From an uncultured Candidatus Saccharibacteria bacterium (GTDB taxonomy: Bacteria > Patescibacteriota > Minisyncoccia > UBA6257 > UBA11618): a stretch of 32,000 bases of DNA. Within the stretch, counting starts at the first letter, position 1, and each line of letters begins with the position of its first letter. Shown here in pieces: positions 1 to 27,004 of this stretch. The position numbers and the translations under genes were made by a program. The DNA is taken from NCBI GenBank assembly GCA_964432405.1, contig CAYSNH010000001.1, positions 150,001 through 182,000 on the forward strand, in the 5' to 3' direction. The notes under the pieces were generated by a model, which did not search any database, was not told the DNA's origin, and saw only the letters and a program-made list of their open reading frames with translations.

Positions 1-503
1 ACTAATTTTATAAGTGTTACTTGATAATCGATTAGCAAACCACTAATCTCTGGTCTAATCTCTGATATTTGAGCGGCACTAATAACCTTATTAACAGCCT
101 TTCTTAAAATAACAGGATTGAACTCTATAAAATTCTCGCTTTTAACTTGAGGGATAACCGGAAACTCATCTTCTTTAAGTCCTTGGATCTTAGCTTCATA
201 ATTATCTGTTTTAAAAATAAAGTTATCTCCATCCTTTTCCAAACTAACTCTTTCTTGATTAGTGTTATTAACAATATTGTTTAAAGTATTAAAAGGAATT
301 GTTAATCCACCCTCTTCAATTATTTTTCCGGAAACAGTTTTTGTAATAGCTAGTTCTAAATTAGTGGTTGAGATATTAATCTTATTACCATTAGTTTTTA
401 ATAAAACATTTCTAAGAATTGGTAGATTAGAACTTTCCCCTATAGCTCTCTCTACAGAAGATAACCCACCCTTTAAATTACTTTTCAATATAATAACCTT
501 CAT
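1..503 (-). CDS. dnaN: DNA polymerase III beta sliding clamp, N-terminal part (gene continues past the left edge)
   Basis: Not in the ORF track because it is truncated. Reverse-strand translation from the ATG at 503..501 reads MKVIILKSNLKGGLSSVERAIGESSNLPILRNVLLKTNGNKINISTTNLELAITKTVSGKIIEEGG..., a typical clamp N-terminus. It lies directly downstream of dnaA, the canonical order. Confidence 0.85.
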   Translation of the reverse strand, partial: MKVIILKSNLKGGLSSVERAIGESSNLPILRNVLLKTNGNKINISTTNLELAITKTVSGKIIEEGGLTIPFNTLNNIVNNTNQERVSLEKDGDNFIFKTDNYEAKIQGLKEDEFPVIPQVKSENFIEFNPVILRKAVNKVISAAQISEIRPEISGLLIDYQVTLIKL

Positions 504-767
504 ATTACTAATATATTTATATATTAATTATTAATAGTAGTAGTAGTTAGTAGTGTCGGACCTTTTTTGTGAATAACCTATTATAACCCTTTTATAATCG
601 AATTAAAAATATTTTTTTAAATATGATAATCTGTTCACTTCCTGTGGATTAAGTTTGGATAAGATAGGAGTAAGTGGTTGGTAACTTTAGTCTTTGTTGA
701 ATGGGGTGTTTTTTATTAACTATTTATCCATAACTAACTCACTAGTAATCCTCAGTTTATCCACAAG
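504..767. promoter_or_regulatory. Putative oriC segment in the dnaA-dnaN spacer: DnaA-box cluster plus AT-rich tract
   Basis: One perfect TTATCCACA at 757..765. One-mismatch boxes: TTATCCATA 724..732, TGTGGATTA 643..651, TTTGGATAA 654..662, TGTGAATAA 568..576. A nearly pure A/T stretch at 504..535 and 600..630 could act as an unwinding element. Confidence 0.6.
535..553. repeat. Trinucleotide microsatellite (TAG)4-T-(TAG)2
   Basis: Direct reading of tagtagtagtagttagtag within the dnaA-dnaN spacer. Confidence 0.9.
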
Positions 768-2243: not shown

Positions 2244-2378
2244 ATGTCAACAACATATCAACCTAAGAAAAGAAAGAGAAAGAGAGTCCACGGATTCTTA
2301 AAAAGAAGCAGTACCCCTAGCGGTCGACGGGTTATAAAGAGCCGTCGTCAAAAGGGTAGAAAAAACATTACTGTTTAA
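2244..2378 (+). CDS. rpmH: 50S ribosomal protein L34
   Basis: Too short for the ORF track. My translation is [44 protein letters not shown] (44 aa), the typical L34 sequence. The TAA stop directly abuts the rnpA ATG. Confidence 0.93.
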
Positions 2379-2681: not shown

Positions 2682-3410
2682 ATGTTTAACACCTTCCTCA
2701 CACAACCTATATTCAACGCCCTTATTTTTTTATACAACAACATTGGAGATTTTGGAGTATCTATTATTTTATTAACTTTAATTATCAGAACTATTCTCGC
2801 TCCTCTTTTTTATAAGAGTTTTAAGAATCAAACTCTCTTACAAAAACTTCAACCAGAGATACAAAAAATCCAACACGATCACAAGCATGATCGTGAAGAG
2901 CAAGCTCGAAGAATGTTGGAGTTATATCGTCAACACAAGGTTAACCCTTTTGCTGGCTTCTTGTTAATACTTGTTCAACTACCTATATTAATTGCAGTCT
3001 ATAGGGTTTTTTATTTAGGAGTCACAGATGAAACATTAAAAAATCTTTATTCTTTCGTTTCCCACCCGGACGTGGTTAATAGCAGTTTTCTTGGCTTGAT
3101 TGATTTATCAAATCGGAGTATTCTTATTGTTGTTTTAGCTGCTGTCTTTCAGTATGTGCACGGTCGTCTAACTCTTCCTAAAATAAAGGAGGGTGAGCCA
3201 GAGCCACAAGCTGTTAAGGTTAGCAAGAAGATGATTTGGATTGGTCCAGTATTAGCGATCGCTATATTAATAACCATGCCTTCCGCTGTTGGAATTTATT
3301 GGTTAACAACAACCTTATTTTCTTTAGCTCAACAAATATATATTAATAAAAAGATTTATGGAGATGACGAAAGCAACAATACAACGAATCCTGGAGTTAG
3401 TGGGGTTTAA
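2682..3410 (+). CDS. yidC: Membrane protein insertase YidC (short form)
   Basis: 242 aa, polytopic. Conserved stretches include ILAPLFYKSFKNQ, LQPEIQKIQ, YRQHKVNPFAGFLLILVQLPILIAVY and GIYWLTTTLFSLAQQ. Confidence 0.9.
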   Translation: MFNTFLTQPIFNALIFLYNNIGDFGVSIILLTLIIRTILAPLFYKSFKNQTLLQKLQPEIQKIQHDHKHDREEQARRMLELYRQHKVNPFAGFLLILVQLPILIAVYRVFYLGVTDETLKNLYSFVSHPDVVNSSFLGLIDLSNRSILIVVLAAVFQYVHGRLTLPKIKEGEPEPQAVKVSKKMIWIGPVLAIAILITMPSAVGIYWLTTTLFSLAQQIYINKKIYGDDESNNTTNPGVSGV

Positions 3411-3786
3411 GGATTTTTCTATTAACTTAGATAATGAAGGAAGAAAATTAATAATCTTTATTAACGAAGGAGATTGGTTTAAAGCATGGGTTCCTAGGGT
3501 TATTAGCGATCTTAATCATATCGCTAAGGTTTTAGCTAATAAAAACAATCACAACCCTGTTTTTATTGATGTAAATAATTATCGCAAAGAACGAGAGAAT
3601 ATTATTATAGATATTGCTAAGGCTGCTGCAAGAAAAGTAGTTATTACTAAGGAAGACGTTAGATTGCCAGCTATGAACTCTTATGAAAGAAGGATTGTTC
3701 ATCTAGAACTATCTACTCGTCCAGATGTAGAAACTGAAAGCGCTGGTGAGGGAGTTAGTCGCTGTGTTATTGTGAAGCCTCTTTAA
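3358..3786 (+). CDS. jag: Jag/KhpB-type RNA-binding protein (KH + R3H)
   Basis: 142 aa. R3H signature SYERRIVHLEL. Canonical position after yidC. The start is uncertain: ATG 3358 or 3364, both inside the 3-prime end of yidC. Confidence 0.8.
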   Translation: MEMTKATIQRILELVGFKDFSINLDNEGRKLIIFINEGDWFKAWVPRVISDLNHIAKVLANKNNHNPVFIDVNNYRKERENIIIDIAKAAARKVVITKEDVRLPAMNSYERRIVHLELSTRPDVETESAGEGVSRCVIVKPL

Positions 3787-4930
3787 CAACCTCTTCATCT
3801 ACCCCCTCCTCTTCCTCCTCAGTCATTTCTTTAGTATCAGTTGCTAGCGTTAAGCTATAAAGCTTTCTATTAAATCTATTAATAAAATATAATTTATTAT
3901 CTATTATTTTTAAGTCGATAGCATCAATGTTATCAGATCCGTTATATAAGCTACTCGTTTTAATTGATTGATTATCATCATCAATAGTAAAAGATTTAAT
4001 AACATCGTTAGATATAAACTCTCTATTTAAATAGTCATCGGGTAGAGATGTGTTCGAAGGTATTTGATTTGGGATGGCGCAGTAAAAAATATTTTGATTA
4101 ATAACACATTTAGAAGCTAGGGTTTTGAAATCAAAATTAACAACAATTTTATTTATCTCTGAATTAATTAAGTTAAAAATTCCACCATCTTTCTTATTAA
4201 AGGCAGATGTTAATCTCCAATTCCCTTTTTGATTAATCATTAAACCGTTACCAGAAGCCACTTTATTAATTTTTTTAGTACTTAGGTTAATTAGCCAAGC
4301 ATTGGAAATATATTTGGTGGTAGGTCTATCTATCGCGATCACCTCACTTGGCGTCACCCAGCTTAATTCAGAGCCTGTTAAATGGATATTTAAAATAGAT
4401 CTAGAAGAGCCTTTTTTAAGATCTAGTATTTTTAAATTATTATTATTTAAATAAATAATCTCATTAGAGTTTTCCGGGTGCCAGTCGGCAGAGGTGGTAT
4501 TTTTAGGAAGAGGTGTCCAGTTATTATCATTGGTGTTGTATATAGAAAAAAATGGTTGATTAGGATAATTAAATTTAATCATTATTTTTCTACCATCCTC
4601 AGAAGATTTAACCTTATTAATCCCCTCTATTTTTTGACTAGATATTTTTTCAGAATCTGAGCCAGTATTCTTTTTTATTTCTCCTAACGCGTTAATAATA
4701 TAAATATTTTTTGTGGCCGGATTAATAGAGTAACCAAGAACATCTTCTTGTGATAAAATATTTATCTTATTTTCAGCAACCACACCAAGCTCACCATCTT
4801 TAGAGTCATCAGTTAGTAGATCCACTATTTTAAAATCTATATTACTATCTGAGTCTAAAAATAAATAAATTAAAAAACCGGTAATAATAATTATAAGAAT
4901 TATTGAGATTGTTATAATAATTTTTCGCAT
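3767..4930 (-). CDS. Membrane-anchored extracytoplasmic protein, possibly beta-propeller-like, with an acidic C-terminal tail; last gene of the T4SS-like operon
   Basis: 387 aa. N-terminal TM helix (IIITISIILIIIITGFLIYLF), then Asn/Ser-rich repetitive beta-like segments. The tail is EMTEEEEEGVDEE. I recognise no family. Confidence 0.6.
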   Translation of the reverse strand: MRKIIITISIILIIIITGFLIYLFLDSDSNIDFKIVDLLTDDSKDGELGVVAENKINILSQEDVLGYSINPATKNIYIINALGEIKKNTGSDSEKISSQKIEGINKVKSSEDGRKIMIKFNYPNQPFFSIYNTNDNNWTPLPKNTTSADWHPENSNEIIYLNNNNLKILDLKKGSSRSILNIHLTGSELSWVTPSEVIAIDRPTTKYISNAWLINLSTKKINKVASGNGLMINQKGNWRLTSAFNKKDGGIFNLINSEINKIVVNFDFKTLASKCVINQNIFYCAIPNQIPSNTSLPDDYLNREFISNDVIKSFTIDDDNQSIKTSSLYNGSDNIDAIDLKIIDNKLYFINRFNRKLYSLTLATDTKEMTEEEEEGVDEEVVKEASQ

Positions 4931-4934
4931 TTAA

Positions 4935-6212
4935 TTATGGTTTAGTAGATGGTTGTTTAACATTGGGAATTTCAACGGTAAAGGTTGATTTATCAACGCG
5001 CACATCTAATATTGATGGATTAATTATATATAAAATAGTGGTAGCTAGAGCTAAAAGAACAAGTCCAAATATAGCGCTTGTAATAATGTCTTTAGCCTCC
5101 GCTATTTTACTAGTATTACCACCTGAAACGGTCCACATCACGCCGCCGTAGGTAATCATTATAAAAGCAAGAATACCAGATATACCTAAGGCAAACTGAT
5201 AAATTAAAACTATATAACCACCAATATCTTCCACTTGCTCCTTTCCTAGTATAGGAACGCAAAGTTTATAACCAAGACCATCCGGCCCACATTCTAATTT
5301 TTTAACATTCGTAATCTCAAGGCTGCCCTTACCAGACATAAGAAAGGTTAGCTTGTCATTGTAGATTCTCATTGTAGCACTCGACCTAGTCTCTCCCCGT
5401 CGCCTTTGTTCATTAGTAACGCGCTCCGCATAAGTCCTAGCAGCCGCTCTATTAAACTCATCTCTATTAATATCTAACCAACTTGCTGTTAAAGCAGCGT
5501 GATCCTTTATAAAACCACCCTTTCCCTCCCATAGAGCTTGAAAAGTGGATCTATATGCCACATCACCTTCTTCAGAATCAAAATAAGCTAAAAGGTCACT
5601 TTTACCACCGTTAGCTCTAGCCTTAAAAATACCCGAGGGGCCATACTTACTAGCCCACCTTTGATTAAGCCTGGCCTTGTCTTCTGGGTAAAGACTCATG
5701 CTCATCAACTCAGTAAAAAATAATTTTTCATTAGTGCCATTTCCATCAGAGCCTAAAACAATTCTATCCTCAGGGTAAAGGGTTCCTTGTATAAATAATA
5801 ATTTACCTCTTAAAACATCGTGACCATTATCATTTCCTAGGCGATTTAAATCACTTGAAAAAATATTACCCGTTATTCGCTCGTACTCATCAGCTAACCT
5901 TTTTCTATACTCTCCAGACGTGCCTTTTAATAAGTTCCAAGTAGTGAGCTCGTCTACATCAAGGTATGGATCGTAAAGAGCTCTCTTCATTGTTTGAGCA
6001 TCTCTCTTAATTTTTCTAGCTAGATCCACTTCACTTAAATGATCTAATCTATCTGTTGATGTCGTTCGGTCTATATTTGTCATTGAGACATTTCTTGCCC
6101 CAGCCCTTGTTTCAGCTCCTTCTCTGGCAAGCTCTGCCTCCATAGATAATTGACTAAAGGCAATAGGAGTTGATAGAACAAATAATATTATAATAATAAA
6201 AACTTTTCTCAT
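4935..6212 (-). CDS. Secreted protein with a C-terminal VirB2/TrbC-type T4SS pilin domain fused to a roughly 300-aa N-terminal domain
   Basis: 425 aa. Signal peptide MRKVFIIIILFVLSTPIAFSQ. The C-terminus is ...CGPDGLGYKLCVPILG...IGGYIVLIYQFALGISGILAFIMITYGGVMWTVSGGNTSKIAEAKDIITSAIFGLVLLALATTILYII. This is the two-helix hairpin with a GG..T.SGGN...AK motif typical of T4SS pilins. Confidence 0.7.
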   Translation of the reverse strand: MRKVFIIIILFVLSTPIAFSQLSMEAELAREGAETRAGARNVSMTNIDRTTSTDRLDHLSEVDLARKIKRDAQTMKRALYDPYLDVDELTTWNLLKGTSGEYRKRLADEYERITGNIFSSDLNRLGNDNGHDVLRGKLLFIQGTLYPEDRIVLGSDGNGTNEKLFFTELMSMSLYPEDKARLNQRWASKYGPSGIFKARANGGKSDLLAYFDSEEGDVAYRSTFQALWEGKGGFIKDHAALTASWLDINRDEFNRAAARTYAERVTNEQRRRGETRSSATMRIYNDKLTFLMSGKGSLEITNVKKLECGPDGLGYKLCVPILGKEQVEDIGGYIVLIYQFALGISGILAFIMITYGGVMWTVSGGNTSKIAEAKDIITSAIFGLVLLALATTILYIINPSILDVRVDKSTFTVEIPNVKQPSTKP

Positions 6213-6871
6213 TTTATTGTTAGATTTATTTTTTTAATAGCCACTTCACCAATATTTTTATTATTAATTACATTTATATTTAAATTAACAGAGGTTGGGC
6301 TGTTGTTAGTTGGTATATCTAGCTCTAAAATATTAGGCCTCTTAACATCCTTACCAGAGTGCTTAATATTATTAGAAAGCCAATTAAAGTTTAAATCCGA
6401 TAGATTGCCTATATTAAAAAATAAGGGCCACGCCTTAATGATACTTATTCCAGCTGGTATCGTATGATTCATAAAATTTCTTTCAATAATAACTTTGGGA
6501 ATTACTTTAGGAATGATAAAGCTTTTTTCTAAATTACCTCCTTCAATATTTTTTATTAAAACCCTAACAAATATATTGCTACGACTCACATTAAATTTAT
6601 TAGCAGTTATTTTTTGTAGGCCAACACCTTTTTGAAATAGCTTTCCATCTATATGCCACTCTATTAATTTATTTTTAACATTTAATAATCTACCACCCTC
6701 TATTAACTCAAAGCTCATATTTAATGAGGAGCCGTCAGTTGGCATTATTTTCCCCTGGTAAAATCCTGGTACAAAACTACCCCCCTCCCAATTAAATAAA
6801 AATTCTTGTCCTTGAGCAAGAGCGGGTAGAGATAATAAACAAATAAAAATTATTAAAATTATACGATTCAT
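6209..6871 (-). CDS. Secreted hypothetical protein (T4SS-like operon)
   Basis: 220 aa. Signal peptide MNRIILIIFICLLSLPALAQG. ATGA overlaps with both neighbouring genes. Confidence 0.6.
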   Translation of the reverse strand: MNRIILIIFICLLSLPALAQGQEFLFNWEGGSFVPGFYQGKIMPTDGSSLNMSFELIEGGRLLNVKNKLIEWHIDGKLFQKGVGLQKITANKFNVSRSNIFVRVLIKNIEGGNLEKSFIIPKVIPKVIIERNFMNHTIPAGISIIKAWPLFFNIGNLSDLNFNWLSNNIKHSGKDVKRPNILELDIPTNNSPTSVNLNINVINNKNIGEVAIKKINLTIK

Positions 6872-7284
6872 ATTTTAGTAATTACTTTAGTAGTCATCCT
6901 AACCTTAGACTTCTTTTTTCTTTTAGGTCCCCTTTTAACTTTAGACCCCTTACCTGTTACCGAGCTAACTTTATGCACTGTTTCTGAGGCGATTGATTCA
7001 GGATGGTTGTGAATGTATATAGTTGAGATAAGTAAAATCGTCTTTAATGGAAGGGCGTTTAAAAAAGGAATAAACTCAATTAATACTGATGCGGCGTATA
7101 ACTCACCTCTTGCTCCTCTGAACAATAACCAAAACTGAACAGGTAGCCACACAATAATATTTATAATCCATTTCACAACTTCTCCTGGTCCAATAGCAAA
7201 AGTAACCACCATTTCTATTAACTCAGCAAGAGCAACAAATCCTACTAAGATAAAAGATTCTATTAATCCAATCTTACTACCCAT
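6868..7284 (-). CDS. Small polytopic membrane protein with a basic C-terminal tail (T4SS-like operon)
   Basis: 138 aa. About 3 hydrophobic helices, then KGSKVKRGPKRKKKSKVR. Its start overlaps the end of the VirB4 ORF by 8 nt. Confidence 0.6.
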   Translation of the reverse strand: MGSKIGLIESFILVGFVALAELIEMVVTFAIGPGEVVKWIINIIVWLPVQFWLLFRGARGELYAASVLIEFIPFLNALPLKTILLISTIYIHNHPESIASETVHKVSSVTGKGSKVKRGPKRKKKSKVRMTTKVITKI

Positions 7285-8974
7285 TTAATAAATCTTTTGG
7301 ATTAGTTGTAATAATCTGATCTTCAAGATAAGAAGCTACTATCTTAATAATGACATGATTTAGGCCTGCAAAAAATAGCCCCTCTCCCACAGGGGTGTCT
7401 AATAAGAAGTTTTTTTCACTATCCGTTAGATTAAAGGTTTTTGCCAATAAATCGATCATTGCTGGTTGTTGCTTTAATAGTATTTGTAGGGCGGAGTTGG
7501 TGATAATGGGTCTTCCATAAGGAGATCTTAAAAAGTCTTCAACGTCTTGAGTGATAGTAGTAACGCCTAAGTAGTATTTTCTCGCTCTCTTAACTAAACC
7601 AAACATGAAAGAGGCGCCATCAGGATATTTCATCATCCACCAAGCCTCATCAACTATCATTACTCGTTGTTTTAATTCACTCTTAATTAAATTCCAAATA
7701 AAGTTAACAATTATATACATTGCTATTGGTCTTAACTCCTCCTCCAGGTCTCTAATAGAAAAAACAACTAGTCGATTCCTTACATTAACGTTGGTTGGTT
7801 GGTTAACAAATCCCGCATAACTTCCCTGGGTGTATCGATATAGGCGCTGAGCCAAGGACTGACCACCAGTCAAGCTATTAAGAACAGTTTCTAAATCAGA
7901 TAATAACGGCGGTTGAGCTTTAGAAAAATCTTTTCCAGGTACTATGTCTCTCGAAGCATAAGTTTCAGCCACAGCTCTGTCTAAGAGAGCTTCTTCTTCA
8001 GGAGTTATCTCTCCTAGCATTATCTTTAATAAGCCAGTTATATTAACTATGTGAGATCGTAGGGCGTCAGCAGGATCTTCATCCTTAGGGATGATTGGTA
8101 GATCAAAAGGATTGATATGATCCTTAGAGGCTAAGGAGATGTTAAAGAAGCTGCCACCTACCGCCTCGGCTAGATTTTTATATTCATTCTCGGGATCGAT
8201 AATTAAAACATCCGTCCCAGTCATTAGTAGTCTCAATGCTTCCAGCTTTGCAGCATATGACTTACCAGCACCAGAGGTAGCAAAGATAACTTGATTAGCA
8301 TTTTCTAGAGAGAATCGATCAAAAATAACTAAGGTGTTATTACTAAGATTGATACCTTGTAGAACCCCGCTGTCCGAGGTTAGTGTGGCAGAAACAAAAG
8401 GAAAAAATGAAGATGCTGGCGAGGAGTTAAAAGGAGATGTGATCATTAGAGAGTCTGTGCCTATCGGTAAAGCTGCATCAAAAGCCTCTATTTGCTGGAA
8501 GGTTGCCGGCTTGCTATAAACCAAGCGACTTTCTAATAAGTGATTAATCTTACCCTCCAACTTTTTTAATTCATTAACACTATCAGCATAAATAGTTATA
8601 TAAACCGAGACATTAAATAAATGTTCAGTTGCTTGCTGTAGGGAGTCTCGTAGAGACTCAACATCTTGAAGAGCCGTCTCTAATTTAGGACTCCTAACCA
8701 TACCCTTTTCACTTTTCTCAATTACCTGAGATTCTATCTGAGCCGTCTTTTTTCTTAAGTTTTTTAAAGCAATAGCTGTATCTACCGGATGAACAAAGAT
8801 AGATACATCCATTAATTCAGGAGCATTAATAATTGGCGAGAACCATCCTGTGGCTAGGTAGCGAGGATAGGCTGAGATAAATATAGTCTTAGTATATTTA
8901 TTACCCAGCTTTAAATAATTAGGATTAACCTCTAAAGCAGATGGAGCTATTATATTTTTAATTTCATTATTCAT
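7277..8974 (-). CDS. virB4: VirB4/TrbE/CagE-family T4SS ATPase, central plus ATPase portion
   Basis: 565 aa. Walker A ATSGAGKSYAAK, Walker B RVMIVDEAWWMM, and the YPRYLATGWFSPII segment typical of the region preceding the NTPase domain. Confidence 0.88.
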   Translation of the reverse strand: MNNEIKNIIAPSALEVNPNYLKLGNKYTKTIFISAYPRYLATGWFSPIINAPELMDVSIFVHPVDTAIALKNLRKKTAQIESQVIEKSEKGMVRSPKLETALQDVESLRDSLQQATEHLFNVSVYITIYADSVNELKKLEGKINHLLESRLVYSKPATFQQIEAFDAALPIGTDSLMITSPFNSSPASSFFPFVSATLTSDSGVLQGINLSNNTLVIFDRFSLENANQVIFATSGAGKSYAAKLEALRLLMTGTDVLIIDPENEYKNLAEAVGGSFFNISLASKDHINPFDLPIIPKDEDPADALRSHIVNITGLLKIMLGEITPEEEALLDRAVAETYASRDIVPGKDFSKAQPPLLSDLETVLNSLTGGQSLAQRLYRYTQGSYAGFVNQPTNVNVRNRLVVFSIRDLEEELRPIAMYIIVNFIWNLIKSELKQRVMIVDEAWWMMKYPDGASFMFGLVKRARKYYLGVTTITQDVEDFLRSPYGRPIITNSALQILLKQQPAMIDLLAKTFNLTDSEKNFLLDTPVGEGLFFAGLNHVIIKIVASYLEDQIITTNPKDLLNG

Positions 8975-9640
8975 TTATTTTTTATCTTTCTGAATAGAGA
9001 CGCCCCTTTTTTCAATTAGTGCTGGATTATAGAAGTTGTAAAATAGTTCGACGACCTCGTCTTCTGATAAAGGAACGGCTCTCAAGCCAACTCTATTTAA
9101 GCCAGCCGTCACCTGATCTACTCTCAGGTCTAATTGGCGTTTATTTTCTATGAACTGGTCACTTTCAGTCTTCTTTTCTTCCGCCCTCTTCTTTTTAAAT
9201 AATCCAAATAATCCTCCAGCTATTTTTTTACCTATTTTAGGAAGAGCGATCGGATCATAAGGAACTATAATAAAAAAAGTTTTAGACATAATAGGATTTC
9301 TTTCTACAAACGCCTTAACAAAATCTCGATAGTCAGTAATTATATTTTTTAATAAGCTGGTAGGTTCTTTTTGGTGAAGTTTTTTTAATTGATTAAGATA
9401 GTTGTCAATATTAATTTTTCGAGAATGAATTATTTCTTGAATAGAAAAACTAAGAGAGTTCAAGAATTCTTGATAGCTAAAAATAATCAAATTCTTTTCT
9501 TCTTCAGATTTAAGATCGAAGTTAATTCCTGAAACTAATAATATTTTTCTAAAACCACCGTTTTTTAAAACAACCACATCATCTTTAATATGATCAACGC
9601 TGATAATTTCTTGAGTTGCTAAAGATTTTTGTTTGGGCAT
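8975..9640 (-). CDS. VirB4 N-terminal-domain-like protein (separate ORF)
   Basis: 221 aa. QEIISVDHIKDDVVVLKNGGFRKILLVSGINFDLKSEEEKNLIIFSYQEFLNSL resembles the N-terminus of monoderm VirB4 homologues (Tn916 Orf16/TcpF/PrgJ type). Its TAA stop is immediately followed, in the same frame, by the ATG of the 565-aa ATPase ORF. Confidence 0.65.
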   Translation of the reverse strand: MPKQKSLATQEIISVDHIKDDVVVLKNGGFRKILLVSGINFDLKSEEEKNLIIFSYQEFLNSLSFSIQEIIHSRKINIDNYLNQLKKLHQKEPTSLLKNIITDYRDFVKAFVERNPIMSKTFFIIVPYDPIALPKIGKKIAGGLFGLFKKKRAEEKKTESDQFIENKRQLDLRVDQVTAGLNRVGLRAVPLSEDEVVELFYNFYNPALIEKRGVSIQKDKK

Positions 9641-9654
9641 TGTTTTATTATAAT

Positions 9655-10125
9655 TTATCTATAATCAACACGACGAGCCACTTCTCTTTCGCCGGTAGTT
9701 TTTCTAAAAACCTCATATTCATTCTTCATTTTTTTAAGCCTTTGTAAGAAAGGAAGCATAAAAGACTTCTCTCCCTTAATAGGCTTGCTAGAAGTGTCTA
9801 GTTTTAATTTTAAGTTTGATAGTCCTTTTTTAGCAACTTGCTTACCACCCTTTTTTTTCCAGATGTAAATGCGAGGACGCCAATAATAATTAATCATAGA
9901 TGTTAAGAGGGTGAGAAACGATCTGCCATTATATTTAACAAAGGCAAAAGAGGCGCTTATTATAGCTATTAAAATAGTGAACACTAGCCAGAAATAAAAG
10001 TTTAAGACAAAGAAGCTAAAGAAGATTATTAAGAAGCCAGCTGCAACGTATAAAAACTGTTTAATAGTTAGAGGACCAACTATCCTATCTTCTATATCTA
10101 TAAATTGAGGGACTTGAAAATGCAT
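9655..10125 (-). CDS. PrgI-family (VirB3-like) membrane protein
   Basis: 156 aa. N-terminus FQVPQFIDIEDRIVGPLTIKQFLYVAAGFLIIFF, followed by a second TM helix. This is the PrgI pattern, and the gene sits directly upstream of virB4 as in monoderm T4SSs. Confidence 0.65.
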   Translation of the reverse strand: MHFQVPQFIDIEDRIVGPLTIKQFLYVAAGFLIIFFSFFVLNFYFWLVFTILIAIISASFAFVKYNGRSFLTLLTSMINYYWRPRIYIWKKKGGKQVAKKGLSNLKLKLDTSSKPIKGEKSFMLPFLQRLKKMKNEYEVFRKTTGEREVARRVDYR

Positions 10126-10126
10126 A

Positions 10127-10906
10127 TTAACTAAACCATTTAGAATCTGGAATCTTAACTTTGATTTCTCCTTTAGTCGGAGGTATTTGAGGGGTGTTGA
10201 GAGGTGTGAAGAAATTGCTATAATGCACGATTCTTTGAACCTCTACATTATCATCTAAAGAGTTCTCTATCTCAACTCTAACAGGAGCTTCTTCAACAGA
10301 TCTTTCCTTAACAGGTTCTTTATAAGTGAAAGAAGACTTACTCTCTTCTTCTACAGGCTTAATCTCTCCTATTTCTTCATGAAGAACAAATGGTTGATTG
10401 GGAGTAGGTGGTTTTATTTTTTGTTTTGCTAATGGCAGATTGTTAGGAGCCTCAGTTGCTGGCTTATTTTTAACCTTGGTGGGCTTAGCACTTAACTTAG
10501 CAGGATTAGAATATTCTGTTACCGGCGCCGGTTTATCAGGGTAGGATGATAGTTGGTCAGGTGGAGCTGTAGAGTATTCAATCATCTCATGAACATCAAC
10601 GCCTATTTTCTTTAACTCTGCCTCGATTGGCTGCAAGCACTCATCATGAATTTTTTGAGTCACTTCTTTAGCAGCCTCATAATTTATTTTTAGTTGAGAT
10701 CCTAGTTCATTAGCAAAGTCTCGGGGATCTAAATCCTGAACAGCTACTCGAAGAATTAATTTAGAAATAATCCTTTCCTTATCAGACTTCAAGCTAAGCT
10801 TATCATTGAGAGTAGTTATATTTTTTACTATTTCTTCAGAGCTAAGCCAGTCTCTGATTTTATCAGATAATGAAGCGAAGGCGTTTTGTAATGATGTTGT
10901 GACCAT
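10127..10906 (-). CDS. Hypothetical soluble protein with a Pro/Lys-rich C-terminal half (T4SS-like operon)
   Basis: 259 aa. No TM segment. It is the only long ORF at this position and is tightly packed between its neighbours. Confidence 0.55.
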   Translation of the reverse strand: MVTTSLQNAFASLSDKIRDWLSSEEIVKNITTLNDKLSLKSDKERIISKLILRVAVQDLDPRDFANELGSQLKINYEAAKEVTQKIHDECLQPIEAELKKIGVDVHEMIEYSTAPPDQLSSYPDKPAPVTEYSNPAKLSAKPTKVKNKPATEAPNNLPLAKQKIKPPTPNQPFVLHEEIGEIKPVEEESKSSFTYKEPVKERSVEEAPVRVEIENSLDDNVEVQRIVHYSNFFTPLNTPQIPPTKGEIKVKIPDSKWFS

Positions 10907-10920
10907 AATTTTTTTATATT

Positions 10921-12780
10921 CTAACTAAAAGACGGGCCATTTATATAATCCTTTAATTCCTTTAATTCTTTGTATTCTTTTCCACCAGGCGCCATTGATA
11001 TGAGATCTTCTCTTATGCCTGGACTCTCTCTTCTCCTTACTTCAGGCATTTTTATTTCTAAATGTTGGTTAATAGTGCTTTGAAGGACCTGCTTCTTTTC
11101 TGTTTGAGGTGATCGGGCTAATTCTTTTAATTGATTTTTTGTTAGCCCCATAGCCACCTCGACCTTTCTAAGTTCTGAGGTGGCTATATTTACAATCTCT
11201 TTAGCAGGAATTTTGCCAGTCGCCTTTCTAATTGCTTCAGCTACATTTTCAGTTCCCTCAACAAATTCCCCAGCTAAAGAAGGCATGGTTTTTAGAGCCT
11301 CTTCTTTGGAGTTCATCTTTTTAGCTGAGTTGACAAAAGGTTTTATAGCAGCCTCTCGATCACCCCCTCTTTTATCAAGAAAGTCATCTAATTGACCTCG
11401 TTTCGACAGCTCATTAAGCTTAGCAGCTTTAGCAGTCGCTCCTAATTCTGAGTAACCATATAGCTCCGTGTTATTAAGACCCTTCAACTTTTCATTTTGA
11501 TAGCTGTCAACTTGCTTTTTTCTATCAGCTCTCTTTTTAGAGTCTGCATCAGCTCTGTAGCTCGATGTAAATCTTCTAATACCAGGCATTCTAGCTAGTC
11601 CAGATCCAGCAGCTCCTAACCCAGCCTTACCAGCTCGTAAAGGCAGTTTAGCAAATCCTTTACCAATCTTTTTGGTCCTACCCTTAAATCTGTTATAAAG
11701 AGCAAGTGAGCTATTTTCCACCATGTCTTTTGCGCTACTACTTATTTTTTTTGAAATAATCAGATTACCTAGCAATAATCCAATGACAATAGATAGTCGA
11801 GCTCCTGTTTCAGCAATATTAGCAATAAAATCACTAACATTACCACCGGAACCGCTAATAACACCAAAGACGCCACTAGGATGAGTTTTGAAATTGGTCA
11901 AGAAGATAATAGTTAAATAAATAAAGAATAGTGAAACTGGCAGAAAGGCCAGGTATTCAATGAATTTTCCCTGCCATTCCTCCCAATTCTTTTTAAATTT
12001 AGGAATTGCGCTAGAGATTAAGGCTAAGGGTAGCATTATTAACAACAGGGATAAGGCTATATAACGCACTAGGACTGATAAGGACAATATCATCATAGTA
12101 CCCCCTCCCAAGACGGTGAAAGCAACAACAAAAAATAGTGCTGCTAGTAATTGAAGTGATGCCTTGCCAAATTGAAAATCAGCGCTTTCTGTAAATTTAT
12201 CCTCCTCCTCTTCAAGAGTATCTGTTTTCATAGCCTCTTGTAATCCTAGGGCATGTGCAAGAGATTTGGAAAATTCACTGAAGTCCCCGTGGCTAGCGTT
12301 TGGAGTTGATTTTGTCACAAAGAAATTACTAACAACACCAGTAGCATCAATAAATACACCGGCAATTGATAAGCTAAAGTTGATTAGAAGAGCGACTATA
12401 ATAATCTTTGGCAAAAGATTTTTATATGTATACCCTTGCAACCTTATAATAGTTCCGATAGCAGCTGTAATTATAGCCACAACCAACAACAAGTTAGCAA
12501 AGTCGCGAGATATCTGCCAACCAACTTGTACTAAGGGGCTGTTTATTAGATTGGCATTTAATTCCAGACCTACTTGGATTAAAAATCCAGCTATCATAAA
12601 GACAATTGCCGCTAAATAACCAATAAGATAGACAGCAAAATACAAAAATTTTGCCATTGCGGCATCCACTGCTGAGAGCGTACTGAGAGCGCCGCCCTCT
12701 AAAAAACCTGCTTGAGCTAAGCTAGGTATTAAAATTACCAAGAGTAGAAGTAGAAGTAGTATTTTATGTCCTTTAAACAT
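10921..12780 (-). CDS. VirB6/TrbL-like polytopic membrane protein with a long basic hydrophilic C-terminal tail
   Basis: 619 aa. Signal-like N-terminus, then at least 6 hydrophobic helices over about 340 aa, then a roughly 275-aa charged tail. Confidence 0.6.
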   Translation of the reverse strand: MFKGHKILLLLLLLVILIPSLAQAGFLEGGALSTLSAVDAAMAKFLYFAVYLIGYLAAIVFMIAGFLIQVGLELNANLINSPLVQVGWQISRDFANLLLVVAIITAAIGTIIRLQGYTYKNLLPKIIIVALLINFSLSIAGVFIDATGVVSNFFVTKSTPNASHGDFSEFSKSLAHALGLQEAMKTDTLEEEEDKFTESADFQFGKASLQLLAALFFVVAFTVLGGGTMMILSLSVLVRYIALSLLLIMLPLALISSAIPKFKKNWEEWQGKFIEYLAFLPVSLFFIYLTIIFLTNFKTHPSGVFGVISGSGGNVSDFIANIAETGARLSIVIGLLLGNLIISKKISSSAKDMVENSSLALYNRFKGRTKKIGKGFAKLPLRAGKAGLGAAGSGLARMPGIRRFTSSYRADADSKKRADRKKQVDSYQNEKLKGLNNTELYGYSELGATAKAAKLNELSKRGQLDDFLDKRGGDREAAIKPFVNSAKKMNSKEEALKTMPSLAGEFVEGTENVAEAIRKATGKIPAKEIVNIATSELRKVEVAMGLTKNQLKELARSPQTEKKQVLQSTINQHLEIKMPEVRRRESPGIREDLISMAPGGKEYKELKELKDYINGPSFS

Positions 12781-12785
12781 TATGA

Positions 12786-14180
12786 TTATTTACAAGCTTC
12801 TAATTGCTGTTGGGTGCTTGATATTTTTCCAGTAATTTCATTTTGAATCTGATCCTTAGTAGTCTCTTTAGTAGTTTGGAATGATTGAGCAGCTTCTTCA
12901 TCTAATAAATTAACTATATTATTGTAATGATATGCGATAGTTGGAGTATCTTGATAAGTGGGGTTTTGGATATTAAACTTAGCACTTTCTAGCGCCTCGG
13001 TAATCTGTTTATTATTTAACAGCTCTCCATTTAGTTGATTTAAAGCCCTTTGTTCATTTTCTAGGTTGGTTTCTGTAGATATGACTTCTGGTAAGTTGCG
13101 TTGAGCCTGACAGTCTCTTAGTTCAGCCACCATTACCACCAGCGTAGATTGACTTCCTACTAATGTAGCTAGCACCTCTCCTCCAATCTGTCTTGGTAAT
13201 AGGGTCGCGTCAATTTGAGTAATAAATGTTAGTTGGTTGTCCCCAAAAGTTTTTTCATTAGCCTTAACAATAGACAGGCAATTAGTTAAGTCACTACCTC
13301 TCAATCCGGCACACGGGCCAGAACCGCTTATGTAGCCATTAGTTGGTTTGTCAGGAGTGGTTAAGCTAATTAACCCTTCTGCACCGGACCTAATTAATCT
13401 ATTAATTAAAGCATCCGCTATCGCCCCTACATAAACAGCTAAATCATTGGCGTTAATTAGATAGTCGATATCAGAGCCAACAGCTTTTGCAACTAAAGCA
13501 CCAACTTGAGCTCCTGGAGTGGTAATTGTACAGAATCTTCCAGAAGGATCACACTTTCTAGTGCCTAAGAAGCCATTACCAGAAACAGCCTCTAAAATAC
13601 TAGCCTGAGCCTCTTCAGCAATTCGACGATCTCTCTCATTCATAGCCATAAAGACAGCGCCATAATAATTGTTTTGAGGTAACCACATTTCTGAGTAAGC
13701 AAACCAACCACCGTTACGGAAGTCCTCATAAAAGTTTTCAATATTACCAACGATATCATCTAGTGTGCAAGAAACGAAATCAGTAAATCTTGGCGGGTTA
13801 AGAATGCTTAACTGAACTTGGAGGCCGAAAGGAGAGCAGAGCTCTTCTAATCCTAGCTCTAGCGCAAAGTCACCTGCTGCAATATTAGCCGCATCAGATA
13901 AGAAGCCTTTCCAGTCAGTAACAAACAAAGGCTTCCCTCCTCCTTCAACCCAGTTAACTATCTGATCGGTAACCATTGATAACAATCTTCTTTTTAGAGC
14001 TGCCACAGCTACCTCAGTAACTTTTCTAAAGAATGTTTCGTCACTAGCGTGAGTAAGTAAGACGGGGTTAGATTCAAAGACAACATCGCCAACTCCGAAA
14101 ATAGCCTCGGCTTTTTGAACAGGTGTTAAAATCAAGCTAAGTCCGATAATTCCAATTAAAATTTTATTTCTAATATTCAT
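12786..14180 (-). CDS. Secreted Cys-containing hypothetical protein (T4SS-like operon)
   Basis: 464 aa. Signal peptide ending ...VQKAEA. I recognise no family. The start shares one base with the upstream stop (TAATG at 14178..14182). Confidence 0.6.
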   Translation of the reverse strand: MNIRNKILIGIIGLSLILTPVQKAEAIFGVGDVVFESNPVLLTHASDETFFRKVTEVAVAALKRRLLSMVTDQIVNWVEGGGKPLFVTDWKGFLSDAANIAAGDFALELGLEELCSPFGLQVQLSILNPPRFTDFVSCTLDDIVGNIENFYEDFRNGGWFAYSEMWLPQNNYYGAVFMAMNERDRRIAEEAQASILEAVSGNGFLGTRKCDPSGRFCTITTPGAQVGALVAKAVGSDIDYLINANDLAVYVGAIADALINRLIRSGAEGLISLTTPDKPTNGYISGSGPCAGLRGSDLTNCLSIVKANEKTFGDNQLTFITQIDATLLPRQIGGEVLATLVGSQSTLVVMVAELRDCQAQRNLPEVISTETNLENEQRALNQLNGELLNNKQITEALESAKFNIQNPTYQDTPTIAYHYNNIVNLLDEEAAQSFQTTKETTKDQIQNEITGKISSTQQQLEACK

Positions 14181-14962
14181 TAAATACTTATTTGATTAAT
14201 CTTTAATAAATTCAAAACCTTGCTAGTTACCTCCTTAAACCCAGCATCTATTGACGGGTTGTATCTTAAAGCCGCTAAAGCCTCCAGAGGGCTGTCATTG
14301 GCATCCCGCAACTTAGTCATAACTATCTTTTGCTTAATCATTAAAGAGATTTGTTGCTTGTGTATACTGGTAGCTGGCACAGGAACTTCTAATTTATAAA
14401 AATCAGCTATAGCACCGTCATAAGAAGAAGTTATTTTATCAAAATTATTTTTACTAAACTCCTCCCAATTTATCTTCTGTGTAGCGAAGTGCTTGTTGAT
14501 TATTTTTTGGAAAGAACGTAAGTAGTTGGCAAGAGCTTCTTTGTCGGTTCGATGAGAAATATTAATCCTTGCTAATTTAACATCATTAAATCCAAGATCT
14601 ATATTATTAACTTTCTCCAGCTCTTCATTAATTATAGAGTTGGCTATATTTTCTGGATTAAGAGCCTTGGCATATTTCTGATCATCAATATCTACTAAAC
14701 CATTATTATTTAATTCCTTGATATGTTGAGCTATCTTATTACCTAGCTGTTTAGTAGTCTCTTCTGCAACTGGATTAGTTTGACGTGTGTTAAGAGGAAT
14801 ATCCTCATTTAAGGTATTTGAAATATTTGATTTCTCCTGAGCTGTTTTTGGTGGTGATGCTGTTGGAGTCTGAGTCTCTAATGAATTACCAAAAAATATT
14901 AATCCACCCAAAACAAACAGGCCCATAAGCAAAAACAAACCGAATTTACGCACGGATCTCAT
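14180..14962 (-). CDS. N-terminally membrane-anchored hypothetical protein, first gene of the T4SS-like operon
   Basis: 260 aa. TM helix FGLFLLMGLFVLGGLIFF followed by a soluble domain of about 200 aa. That architecture is compatible with a VirB8-like role, but I see no sequence signature. Confidence 0.55.
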   Translation of the reverse strand: MRSVRKFGLFLLMGLFVLGGLIFFGNSLETQTPTASPPKTAQEKSNISNTLNEDIPLNTRQTNPVAEETTKQLGNKIAQHIKELNNNGLVDIDDQKYAKALNPENIANSIINEELEKVNNIDLGFNDVKLARINISHRTDKEALANYLRSFQKIINKHFATQKINWEEFSKNNFDKITSSYDGAIADFYKLEVPVPATSIHKQQISLMIKQKIVMTKLRDANDSPLEALAALRYNPSIDAGFKEVTSKVLNLLKINQISI

Positions 14963-15016
14963 GTAATAATTATACCTTTAATTAGTAAACTAAAAAATTA
15001 AGAGAGTTATCCACTA
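14963..15016 (-). promoter_or_regulatory. Candidate promoter of the T4SS-like operon: TATAAT 6 nt upstream of the ATG, plus a DnaA-box-like 9-mer
   Basis: Reverse strand reads ...AGTGGATAAC...TTTACTAATTAAAGG TATAAT TATTAC ATG. The -10 is at 14974..14969. TTATCCACT lies at 15008..15016 on the plus strand. The -35 is poor. Confidence 0.35.
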
Positions 15017-15017
15017 C

Positions 15018-17572: not shown

Positions 17573-18568
17573 ATGCTTAAAAAATTATCCTTTTTAAGGC
17601 AAAAGGCGGCTCTGCCGGCTATTTTTATTACTTGCGCCTCTATCTTCAACCTCTTTATTCTATCAGGTTTTTTCCAGCCTTTTTCTAACAATACGGTTTT
17701 AGGAGGTCCAGATCAAATGGATAATAATCAAGCGCTCTTGTCAGCGGAAACCCCCATTGATTTTGAGCCGGCTAATAATTTAGAGGATTTTGGTGGTTTT
17801 GCTATTTTAGATAGCTCTTATGTTTTAAGTCCAGGTAGCTCCTTGAGTAATACCCTCCCTACCCGAAACGGCTTAATGATTTATCGAGTCCAGTCTGGTG
17901 ACAACTTATCTAGCATAGCTGCAAATTTTGGCGTATCACTTAATACTGTTTTTTGGGCTAACCCCAATTTAAATAAAAGAAGATCAATACAAGTCGGTCA
18001 GGAGATAGTAATCCTACCAGTCTCAGGAGTTAAACATGAGGTTCAAGAAGGAGAAACCCTTATCACTATAGCCTCTCTCTACAATGTTAACCCAGATCAT
18101 ATTTTAAAATATAATAAACAAATTGTGGCGGGTAGAAGTATTATCATTCCTGGCGCTAAGCCAACTAAAAAAACTACCCATTACACCCAATCTAAAAAGT
18201 TACCACGTCTAGCTGGACATCTTGTTGTCCCAACTACCGGTTGGAACTGGGGGCAGCTTCATTATAATAATGCCGTTGATATTGCTAATGCTTGCAACAC
18301 ATCAATTTATGCCGCCGCTGAAGGCTTGGTGGTTAAGGTTCGATCCGGTTGGAATGGTGGTTATGGAAATTACGTCATCATAGAACATCCTAATGGCATC
18401 TCTACCCGCTACGCTCATTTGCAAAAATCTACCGTGTCAGTTGGTCAGTATGTTGTTCAGGGTGATCAAATTGGTCAAATGGGAAGTTCAGGTAACACTC
18501 ATGGACCAACCGGTTGTCACCTTCACTTTGAAGTTGTGGGCGCTGCTAATCCATTCGCTAAAAGATAA
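17573..18568 (+). CDS. Secreted peptidoglycan hydrolase: two LysM repeats plus an M23 metallopeptidase domain
   Basis: 331 aa. LysM repeats YRVQSGDNLSSIAANFGVSLNTVFWANP and HEVQEGETLITIASLYNVNPDHILKYN. M23 motifs HPNGISTRYAHL and GPTGCHLHFEV. Confidence 0.88.
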   Translation: MLKKLSFLRQKAALPAIFITCASIFNLFILSGFFQPFSNNTVLGGPDQMDNNQALLSAETPIDFEPANNLEDFGGFAILDSSYVLSPGSSLSNTLPTRNGLMIYRVQSGDNLSSIAANFGVSLNTVFWANPNLNKRRSIQVGQEIVILPVSGVKHEVQEGETLITIASLYNVNPDHILKYNKQIVAGRSIIIPGAKPTKKTTHYTQSKKLPRLAGHLVVPTTGWNWGQLHYNNAVDIANACNTSIYAAAEGLVVKVRSGWNGGYGNYVIIEHPNGISTRYAHLQKSTVSVGQYVVQGDQIGQMGSSGNTHGPTGCHLHFEVVGAANPFAKR

Positions 18569-19602: not shown

Positions 19603-19681
19603 GACAAACACTCTCCGTAATAAGGTGCTAAAAATTTTGGGCGGCTAAATTACAATAGCTCTAAAAACCCAATCAGAAACT

Positions 19682-19833: not shown

Positions 19834-20034
19834 CTATCGTTTTAGTTGCTTAGCTTTATCGAGGTTAAATTTAACAATTTCTTCTGATTTTGACAAGTCT
19901 CCTCCAAATGCCTTGCTAGCTCTATTAGCTAAAAATGACATCGATCGACTGACATAAAAAATTATTAATGCAAAAATAGTGATGCCAATTATCCAGAAGA
20001 TCAACTCTTTTTTATTGTGAAAAAACTTTCCCAT
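19834..20034 (-). CDS. Small single-pass membrane protein
   Basis: 66 aa. TM helix LIFWIIGITIFALIIFYV. It overlaps the upstream gene by 23 nt. No family recognised. Confidence 0.45.
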   Translation of the reverse strand: MGKFFHNKKELIFWIIGITIFALIIFYVSRSMSFLANRASKAFGGDLSKSEEIVKFNLDKAKQLKR

Positions 20035-20548: not shown

Positions 20549-20552
20549 CTAT

Positions 20553-21218: not shown

Positions 21219-21280
21219 AATAATTGACAAGTTATTATAAATACATAAAACTTGAATCTTTGTAACAAAATATTTCAAAT

Positions 21281-26458: not shown

Positions 26459-26459
26459 C

Positions 26460-27002: not shown

Positions 27003-27004
27003 TA

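Follow-up and report, generated by a model that had tools for sequence, protein, structure and literature searches.

Why should a chromosome keep, beside its replication origin, what looks like the core of a conjugation apparatus, with none of the genes that would make it conjugative? The question is raised by eleven genes on the reverse strand of a 32,000-nucleotide stretch of contig CAYSNH010000001.1 (assembly GCA_964432405.1, positions 150,001 to 182,000), the whole of which is referred to here as the window; the genes are lettered K to A in the order in which they are read. The original prediction, made from the sequence, had described them as an origin-adjacent, relaxase-less operon resembling a type IV secretion system (T4SS), with four recognisable T4SS parts and six partners that could not be assigned. 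The present analysis identifies the locus as a Patescibacteria chromosomal T4SS cassette in a Paceibacteria genome, and the core of that prediction (a chromosomal, relaxase-less, non-conjugative T4SS of the Patescibacteria type) holds on all the points that could be tested. The finding is real, and the locus is otherwise an ordinary member of a published system; what is added here is a defined 11-gene Paceibacteria cassette, two fold assignments, a toggle between split and fused VirB4 at one TAA, and an annexin-pilin fusion, the last being a modest new detail of a small lineage.

The system was published between 2023 and 2025, including its missing relaxase, its adjacency to the origin, its VirB2-like pilins and its TrsD plus VirB4 pair, and the statement that the core itself is not new was correct (Wang 2023, PMC10633639; Quinonero-Coronel 2025, PMC12102498). 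According to PMC12102498, 2,417 of 3,035 Patescibacteria genomes have a VirB4, whose sequences make up a monophyletic clade within MPF_FATA; PrgI/VirB3, VirB6 and VirB2-like pilins (PF18895) lie near virB4, relaxases are nearly absent, VirB8 is almost never detected, and in Paceibacteria and Microgenomatia the T4SS adjoins dnaA, dnaN, rnpA, ksgA and rpmH. In S. epibionticum the T4SS (SEML1_0006-0019), pilins included, is essential for epibiotic growth (PMC10633639), with no recognisable coupling or relaxase proteins (PMC10633639; PMC12857230). The function is called unknown by a 2025 FEMS review (PMC12857230) and a 2024 PNAS perspective (PMC11665869), and the role of a system that is essential in the one species tested, and that comes without conjugation parts, is an acknowledged open question, for which a clean and complete 11-gene Paceibacteria cassette of fixed order offers a useful reference parts list.

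An eleven-gene cassette between rsmA and the dnaA cluster

The eleven open reading frames (ORFs) occupy positions 3767-14962, all on the minus strand and tightly packed, with coordinates and strand verified against the ORF calls on the window (Table 1). From K to A the successive junctions measure -1, 5, 14, 1, 14, 0, -8, -4, -4 and 4 nt, and the minus-strand junction strings are found exactly (TAATG at 14178-14182, ATGA at 6868-6871 and at 6209-6212, and TAAATG at the position given in Table 1), so that the packing of short spacers and overlaps described in the original prediction stands. The co-directional run extends upstream into uvrD/pcrA and rsmA, which lie 3 nt and 55 nt, respectively, before their downstream neighbours. 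Promoter and terminator consensus scans of the cassette region did no better than on shuffled sequence, so that an operon structure is suggested by the packing alone. No Shine-Dalgarno-like GGAGG occurs in the 25 nt before the start of any of the 11 genes (3767-15017), which suggests that translation initiation in this lineage may bypass Shine-Dalgarno pairing; the sequence upstream of the starts is A/T-rich.

On the origin side the cassette is flanked by dnaN, dnaA, rpmH, rnpA, yidC and jag, and on the opposite side by rsmA, uvrD/pcrA, an M23-LysM peptidase gene, tRNA-Ile, a PilO-like gene, dprA, topA and pnp, followed by an NYN-domain gene, rpsO, an S1 protein gene and gyrA (cut by the window end); this annotation agrees with the predicted placement between the dnaA-rpmH-yidC-jag cluster and rsmA. 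DnaA-box-like sites with at most one mismatch number 14 in the window, five of them in a cluster in the dnaN-dnaA gap (Table 1), which is the probable oriC, and two at 2197-2216. As 7 of the 14 fall in two gaps around dnaA, the label origin-adjacent is a reasonable one. The GC content of the cassette (0.29-0.41) matches that of its surroundings.

Table 1. Genes of the cassette, read from K to A, and other features located in or near the window (window numbering, unless a neighbouring locus is named).
Feature	Position	Strand	Length (aa)	Basis or remark
K, bitopic protein, first cassette gene	14180-14962	-	260	topology prediction
J, Sec-signal, Cys-rich secreted protein	12786-14180	-	464	signal peptide, AlphaFold2 (AF2) model
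I, extended VirB6/TrbL-like polytopic membrane protein	10921-12780	-	619	orthologs, topology
H, predicted cytoplasmic protein	10127-10906	-	259	no transmembrane segment
G, PrgI/VirB3-like small membrane protein	9655-10125	-	156	PF12666
F, TrsD, the VirB4 N-terminal domain as a separate protein	8975-9640	-	221	TrsD, VirB4_CagE
TAAATG junction, one in-frame stop with the start codon of the VirB4 C-terminal part directly after it	8972-8977	-		
E, VirB4 ATPase C-terminal part, MPF_FATA-like	7277-8974	-	565	NF045971, Walker motifs
D, small membrane protein	6868-7284	-	138	three hydrophobic segments, Lys/Arg-rich C-terminal tail
C, Sec-signal secreted protein	6209-6871	-	220	ortholog Pfam matches
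B, annexin-pilin fusion	4935-6212	-	425	PF18895 and annexin profile matches
A, predicted membrane-anchored extracellular TolB-like (PD40/DPPIV_N-type) beta-propeller, last gene	3767-4930	-	387	
dnaN	3-527			cut by window start; flank, origin side
Five DnaA-box-like sites	568-765	unstranded		dnaN-dnaA gap; ~3 kb from cassette end
rpmH	2244-2378			flank, origin side
Three short T4SS_pilin genes	L085:14181-15472 (~33.45-34.74 kb)	+	132, 141, 120	T4SS_pilin

All four T4SS parts recognised in the original prediction were recovered, VirB4, PrgI and the pilin above curated cut-offs and VirB6 through its orthologs. E matches NF045971 (conju_CD1110) at 1e-112 (377.8 bits, cut-off 325) over model positions 186-731 of 752, as well as PF19044, PF12846 and PF01935, and its Walker motifs are intact (P-loop ATSGAGKS at aa 232-239, Walker B VMIVDE at aa 438-443); the best curated VirB4 families for it are CD1110 and the Mycoplasma VirB4 of integrative and conjugative elements (ICEs; NF045975 Mbov_0397). 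F covers VirB4_CagE model positions 15-183 and CD1110 model positions 2-102, and matches NF041427 TrsD at 3e-9, which is under the curated 200-bit cut-off; the precomputed annotation of a protein identical to F carries PF26593 TraC-like. G, with two adjacent hydrophobic segments, matches PF12666 PrgI at 7.9e-10 (39.6 bits, cut-off 27). In I, an extended VirB6 as the term is used in the 2025 FEMS review (PMC12857230), about 8 hydrophobic segments are predicted within aa 1-343, followed by a hydrophilic C-terminal domain of ~275 aa. The protein itself has no Pfam match and meets NCBIfam CD3337/EF1877 below cut-off (1.9e-4), and its family has no sequence match in PDB; 5 of 40 orthologs match PF04610 TrbL/VirB6 (best 1.3e-7) and one matches TrbL_4, and it is transitively, through these orthologs, that the assignment of I as a putative VirB6 homolog is supported.

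F and E share a reading frame, and read-through of 7277-9640 gives 788 codons with a single internal stop, at codon 222. Five of the closest species-level relatives lack a stop at this junction and encode one VirB4 of 768-790 aa across it (L005:9314-11686, L006:746-3106, L013:788-3160, L034:9344-11716 and L038:9368-11674), while one strain variant and three additional metagenome contigs, nearly identical to the window, retain the split. Given these five open junctions, the two-gene form is to be regarded as the equivalent of a full-length VirB4 whose state has toggled recently, TrsD plus VirB4 switching between split and fused among close relatives. The original prediction had singled out the split ATPase as worth studying: the split is real, but it is the known TrsD plus VirB4 pair, fused in the nearest relatives, and brings no novelty, being the majority state in the phylum; TrsD adjoining virB4 was reported in 1,664 cases (PMC12102498). 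Low-level read-through of the stop in the window lineage is conceivable.

The six partner proteins had been listed as unassignable, which stands for K, J, H and D, whereas A and C now receive folds. The family profile of A matches 12 TolB sequences in PDB, at 2.8e-9 (4r40) to 5e-6, over TolB residues ~230-350, and its orthologs give faint PD40, DPPIV_N, YqgU and S9_N matches and one PG_binding_1 match; A, which has a transmembrane segment at aa 1-29 and an acidic C-terminal tail, is assigned from these profiles as a TolB-like beta-propeller. The region matched by the family profile (2.8e-9) is what it shares with TolB, from which it differs in having an N-terminal membrane anchor, not the TolB N-domain, in having no Tol-Pal partners, and in standing last in a T4SS cassette, the organism in question being presumably monoderm. 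For C, 8 of 40 orthologs match BiPBP_C, others match Ig_3, Cadherin-like, MG4 or PKD_3, and the profile gives a weak PDB match to the Ig-like protein Hoc (5e-4); C probably consists of tandem Ig-like beta-sandwich domains, a weak assignment.

K is predicted to comprise an N-terminal transmembrane segment (aa 3-29), a low-complexity linker and an extracellular C-terminal domain of ~130 aa; it has no Pfam match and 4 close homologs by word-index search. Bacterial TSP3 Ca-binding repeats, carried by 14 of 40 K orthologs, suggest an extracellular location for K. The topology of K is what a VirB8-like protein would have, and the original prediction had proposed looking here for an NTF2 fold of that type; sequence profiles lend the idea no support, since the 40-member profile of K returned no VirB8, PrgL, TraM or TcpC chain from PDB even at E <= 5, the sole match being to an OmpA-family protein over the linker (probably the TSP3-like region). 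The 91 homologs of J are all from Patescibacteria and all annotated as hypothetical. Its invariant residues are C115, C138, C357, C463 and T221-P222-G223, with two more cysteines near-invariant; in the AF2 model (mean predicted local distance difference test score, pLDDT, 69) a poorly defined helical N-domain precedes a long C-terminal three-helix bundle (aa ~300-464, nt 12789-13283; pLDDT 96-98), and a Foldseek search of this model against PDB gave nothing significant (best E 0.06). The gain of Fn3, Ig-like and F5/8-C domains by one J ortholog is consistent with a place at the cell surface. H has a conserved N-terminal domain of ~110 aa and a Pro-rich, probably disordered remainder, with no Pfam match in 39 members and no PDB profile match; the D family, found in 65 of the 80 loci described below after profile iteration, has neither a Pfam nor a PDB match. 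Pfam and NCBIfam searches found no hydrolase domain (VirB1-like) in any of the 11 cassette proteins, and no VirB7, VirB9 or VirB10 outer-membrane core component was found in the cassette.

A VirB4 scan with one genome per GTDB species gave at least 588 relatives, the best 80 loci of which (58-71% identity) were analysed; ORF families at these loci were assigned by single-sequence searches and then by iterated profile searches. Where the titles of the 80 loci name a lineage it is a Patescibacteria group (Paceibacterota, Parcubacteria, Wolfebacteria, Jorgensenbacteria and similar, some labelled Saccharibacteria), the rest reading only 'bacterium'. In 27 species-level loci, termed full loci, the whole interval from rsmA to yidC/dnaA is spanned, and the common order is rsmA-K-J-VirB6-H-PrgI-TrsD-VirB4-D-C-pilin-A-jag/yidC/rnpA-dnaA. 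H, G, F and E are present in all 27, K, C and A in 25 each, J, I and a pilin in the slot of B in 24 each, and D in 19; 26 of the 27 are collinear with the window, and 20 of the 27 contain no extra unassigned ORF of 150 aa or more. This presence and fixed order argue that the six accessory proteins are fixed components of a class-wide cassette, not cargo, and the test of gene-neighbourhood conservation that had been proposed for the locus accordingly returned a vertically conserved core block.

Pfam and NCBIfam searches of the ORFs of the 32-kb window found no relaxase, VirD4/TcpA, VirB11, integrase or transposase, in agreement with the original prediction, and the further check that it had proposed found no relaxase and no type IV coupling protein (T4CP) within 10 kb beyond either window end. 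These outer 10-kb segments hold PBP1, ruvC, yebC, a PilB-type ATPase gene, ruvB, tsaE and polA on the origin side and gyrA, a solute-binding protein gene, the three short pilin genes, a Band_7 protein gene, a tyrosine recombinase gene and ftsH on the other. The sole recombinase there, of 292 aa, adjoins ftsH, carries Phage_int_SAM_1 and Phage_integrase, and by these domains looks XerC/D-like. With mobility genes absent from the window, no relaxase or T4CP within 10 kb of it, flanks fixed and 26 of 27 loci collinear, the view that the locus is not a conjugative element is upheld. Rfam gave tRNA-Ile as its sole match in the window.

A pilin with annexin-type repeats

The pilin fusion had likewise been flagged as worth study, and rightly, since it proves to be a fusion of annexin-type repeats to a VirB2-type pilin. 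From its N terminus, B has a Sec signal (aa 1-21), annexin-like repeats (aa ~61-295, nt 5328-6032), a conserved linker with two cysteines (C308 and C318) and, C-terminally, the pilin core (aa 330-402, nt 5007-5225), which matches PF18895 T4SS_pilin at 9.4e-10 (38.9 bits, cut-off 26.6) over aa 337-397. B alone misses Pfam Annexin at E <= 0.1. A profile of eight sequences (B and seven full-length homologs) matches annexin IV in PDB at 1e-8 and annexin V/A2 at ~1e-6, over two repeats, and 57 of the 60 PDB matches listed for this profile are annexin chains. Among 1.84 billion cluster representatives, searched exhaustively with phmmer, the N-terminal 304 residues of B have 15 relatives, which are either proteins of ~375-430 aa ending in T4SS_pilin or long proteins with 2-7 Pfam Annexin repeats, these repeats reaching E values down to 1e-94; the phmmer matches that link the N-region of B to the multi-repeat Annexin proteins have E values of 2.8e-13 to 5e-5. 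The sequence GNGTNE (aa 157-162) of B aligns with the GxGT(D/N)E motifs of the repeats in these multi-repeat proteins, T160 and E162 being invariant in 8 homologs, while the first annexin-like repeat has YDPYLDVDE in place of the GxGT motif. The AF2 model of B is all-helical (pLDDT 62.6 overall, 65-90 over aa 50-295), and its top 50 Foldseek matches in PDB are all annexins at probability 1.00; the scores are weak (best E 1.4e-3, TM 0.21-0.34, root-mean-square deviation 12-14 A), so that the fold evidence is corroborative.

With the annexins (bacterial, PMC3894181; eukaryotic A4/A5/A2) B therefore shares the repeats of its N-region and one GxGT(D/N)E endonexin-type motif. It differs from them in that a Sec signal precedes the repeats and a T4SS pilin is joined to them, one repeat only keeps the Ca-site motif, and the repeat arrangement of the model superposes poorly on the annexin tetrad. 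A survey of bacterial annexins describes fusions to toxin domains, peptidase domains and transmembrane regions, and the word 'pilin' is absent from it (PMC3894181); a search of the available literature found no paper linking annexin with VirB2 or pilins, and the available portions of PMC12102498 and PMC10633639 make no mention of such a fusion.

Across eight B homologs the mean identity is 88% in the pilin core against 56% in the annexin-like part (34-36% for the most distant), and distant homologs (43% and 68% identity) fill the equivalent slot in their own cassettes. A pilin gene occupies this slot in 64 of the 80 loci, and a hidden Markov model of the annexin-like region of B found nothing in the 80, so that, as judged by these profile searches, the fusion is restricted to a small sub-lineage. 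At the related loci (L005-L084, slot downstream of C) a pilin core of ~75 aa is kept within total lengths of 99-589 aa, and the appended sequence is unrelated, mostly C-terminal and hypervariable across species. The pilin gene thus appears to be a hotspot for domain accretion, an attachment point for lineage-specific domains that here would be annexin-type repeats, a fold known for membrane binding. The three short pilin genes, which follow gyrA and a solute-binding protein gene ~1.5-4 kb past the window end and ~20 kb from the cassette, encode proteins with 24-29% identity to the pilin core of B and are candidates for shaft subunits.

From this arrangement comes a testable hypothesis, that the domain binds lipid or the host envelope. 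In its full form, which we consider less likely than not, the annexin-VirB2 fusion would be a functional pilus subunit that puts a lipid-binding module on the surface or tip of the T4SS pilus, with which an ultrasmall episymbiont could dock on or insert into the host membrane. Were this correct, the fusion would represent the first known case of an annexin domain within a secretion-system filament and would give a molecular handle on how the essential, functionally unexplained T4SS of Patescibacteria touches its host, and the hypervariable domains appended to pilins in other Paceibacteria would be host-range determinants.

Possible function of the cassette

The closest known systems delimit what the cassette may do. 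With other T4SSs of the Patescibacteria clade it shares an MPF_FATA-like VirB4, an adjacent TrsD, PrgI/VirB3, a putative VirB6, one or more VirB2-like pilins, the absence of a nearby relaxase or T4CP, and a chromosomal position next to dnaA, rnpA, ksgA and rpmH; membership of the Patescibacteria/MPF_FATA clade itself rests on the published tree (PMC12102498). Most neighbour genes are left unannotated in the published Patescibacteria T4SS papers, whereas here the order of 11 genes and folds for A and C are defined, and in Saccharimonadia a 6-pilin array is described inside the cluster, as against one fused pilin inside the window locus and three short ones ~20 kb off. The monoderm MPF_FATA systems (pCF10 Prg/Pcf, pIP501 Tra, pGO1 Trs and CTn2/CD1110) have in common with the cassette a CD1110-type VirB4, PrgI and TrsD, and the lack of a VirB7, VirB9 and VirB10 outer-membrane core. 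Unlike them, the cassette has no relaxase, VirD4/TcpA, PrgB-type adhesin or recognisable VirB1 or VirB8, it includes a VirB2-type pilin, which the Gram-positive systems do not have (PMC12857230), and it is chromosomal and vertically inherited, not mobile. Helicobacter pylori ComB, Bordetella Ptl and Brucella VirB also have neither a relaxase nor VirD4 near the operon, which shows that a VirB4-centred machine can serve roles other than conjugation; these are, however, diderm systems with VirB7, VirB9 and VirB10 cores and (except ComB) VirB11, and no sequence relationship to the cassette was seen beyond VirB4, VirB3, VirB6 and VirB2.

We read the cassette as a chromosomal T4SS that descended from monoderm MPF_FATA conjugation machinery and was re-purposed for an episymbiotic lifestyle as a VirB4-driven pilus or host-contact machine, and assign this reading a probability of roughly 0.8. 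In its favour count the essentiality of the S. epibionticum system (PMC10633639) and the tubes towards the host, which may be T4SS pili, observed in a cultured member (bioRxiv 10.64898/2026.06.21.733656). The working hypothesis of a surface apparatus that serves host contact or exchange is probably right, and for the primary output of the apparatus the balance tips modestly towards a pilus or tube that contacts or penetrates the host. In the Agrobacterium VirB system, VirB4 is implicated in pulling pilin out of the membrane, and the set retained here (VirB2, VirB3, VirB4/TrsD, VirB6 and extracellular partners, with T4CP, relaxase and VirB11 absent from the vicinity) resembles the VirD4-independent subset for pilus biogenesis, which is why a pilus machine is proposed here. 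VirB4 and TrsD, docked on VirB3 and VirB6, would extract pilin from the membrane and polymerise it into a pilus or tube, for which the three short pilins may supply the shaft. Wall-spanning or distal parts, which carry the tube through the wall and hold it against the host, would be supplied by K, J, C and A, the partners exported by Sec, and in the sub-lineage that has it the annexin-pilin B could act as a specialised subunit binding host membrane lipids. The scheme would accommodate effectors moving outward as well as host nucleic acid or other material moving inward.

Several points weigh against this reading. Pilus formation is deduced from gene content alone; the cassette yielded no identifiable VirB8-like scaffold or VirB1-like hydrolase, and K, J, H and D are without an assigned fold. 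VirD4-like homologs are reported in most Patescibacteria genomes, usually far from virB4 (PMC12102498), so that a T4CP may be encoded elsewhere in the genome and T4CP-dependent transfer may exist. As regards B, structural comparison supports the annexin fold weakly (TM 0.2-0.3, with no Foldseek match of the predicted model at E <= 1e-3), Ca-dependent lipid binding is not assured, since GxGT is kept in one repeat only, and a domain of ~300 aa attached to a pilin could be removed by cleavage or could clash with filament packing.

The effector-export and import readings overlap with the pilus model. The better placed of the two, though we think it doubtful as the principal function, is that the system translocates effectors, injecting symbiont proteins that manipulate or lyse the host, in the way that the T4CP-less Bordetella Ptl and Brucella VirB systems export proteins. 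Protein export or an alternative role was favoured by Wang 2023 because coupling and relaxase proteins are missing (PMC10633639), effector delivery is noted as a speculation in PMC11665869, and J and C, which are conserved and secreted, might serve as substrates or at the tip instead of as structural parts. The partners are nonetheless kept in fixed order like structural parts, with no recognisable secretion signal or adaptor, and a candidate effector, marked by a toxin or enzymatic domain, was found neither in the cassette nor beside it.

Slightly less probable again is import, in which a T4SS of the ComB or 'straw' kind would take host DNA, RNA or other cytoplasmic material into a cell unable to make nucleotides. 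The T4CP-less, relaxase-less make-up is like that of the H. pylori ComB DNA-uptake T4SS (a precedent given in PMC11665869, where the T4SS itself is still held as a candidate nucleotide route), DprA, the PilO-like gene and polynucleotide phosphorylase (PNPase) lie within 6-12 kb of the cassette in the window, T4SS loci of the ABY1 class adjoin comF, recG and radA (PMC12102498), and host RNA uptake has been reported in a cultured member together with tubular structures directed at the host 'that may be T4SS pili' (bioRxiv 10.64898/2026.06.21.733656). On the other hand, domain searches of the 11 proteins detected neither nucleic-acid-binding nor nuclease domains, and the adjacency of DprA and PNPase falls outside the conserved block analysed. 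We also know of no precedent for import through a VirB4/VirB6 channel in a monoderm, which counts against this reading. Competence in S. epibionticum needs ComEC, which is dispensable for growth, whereas the T4SS is essential (PMC12857230), which excludes ComEC-dependent transformation as the reason for essentiality.

That the locus is instead an ICE, or a decayed remnant of one near the origin, whose job is or was conjugative DNA transfer, is very improbable and was rejected on the missing mobility genes and fixed synteny: its VirB4 is closest to monoderm ICE and plasmid conjugation ATPases (NF045971 CD1110, NF045975 Mbov_0397) and its PrgI and TrsD belong to conjugation-plasmid families, but no relaxase, T4CP, integrase, transposase or flanking tRNA/att signature turned up in the window or within 10 kb of either end (no search for flanking repeats was made), 27 species-level genomes have the locus at one and the same place between rsmA and yidC/dnaA (26 of 27 collinear), the GC content is like that of the flanks, the only recombinase within 10 kb looks XerC/D-like, and the published VirB4 tree gives a monophyletic Patescibacteria clade with almost no inter-class transfer (PMC12102498), so that the fixed position, normal GC content and missing mobility genes together rule out an ordinary ICE.

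Neighbouring genes and minor observations

At the origin-side end of the cassette, jag (plus strand, 3358-3786) and gene A (minus strand) converge and overlap at their 3' ends by 20 nt (3767-3786); as called on the source contigs, jag is sometimes shorter, at 128 aa, and A longer, at 390-392 aa. At the other end, the 55-nt gap between rsmA and K contains a DnaA-box-like site (TTATCCACT, 1 mismatch, 15007-15015, plus strand), and a TATAAT lies 7 nt ahead of the ATG of gene K. A DnaA box is found in this gap in 4 of 25 related loci, or 1.28 per kb against a background of 0.38 per kb (~3x); control of the operon by DnaA boxes was dropped as an explanation, the box being present in just 4 of the 25 and the numbers small, which makes it suggestive at most.

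Competence and type IV pilus genes are also scattered around the origin. A PilO-like gene (PF04350, 1.1e-4, slightly above the cut-off), dprA and topA occupy 20012-23263, 5-8 kb from the cassette, and a PilB-type T2SSE ATPase is encoded ~7 kb beyond dnaA (L086:16766-18430). The genes for pnp, the NYN-domain ribonuclease-like protein, rpsO and the S1-domain protein form a run on the minus strand at 24368-28415. PNPase has been proposed to turn host RNA into nucleotides in Patescibacteria (2026 preprint, bioRxiv 10.64898/2026.06.21.733656); its proximity to the T4SS may be coincidental.

Two minus-strand ORFs, at 18610-19611 (333 aa, GTG start) and 23294-24322 (342 aa), have no Pfam match; the former, a 330-aa gene in the source-contig calls, sits in the GC peak of the window (0.42-0.46 against 0.28-0.41 elsewhere). 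Next to it, at 17573-18568 on the plus strand, a secreted M23 peptidase with two LysM domains is encoded 2.6 kb upstream of the cassette and on the opposite strand to it. By phmmer, an M23-LysM peptidase is adjacent in 3 of the 80 related loci, and VirB1-like proteins with M23 and LysM domains have been noted in Patescibacteria (PMC12102498); from its domain content, the peptidase is a candidate for a wall-remodelling partner in the role of VirB1.

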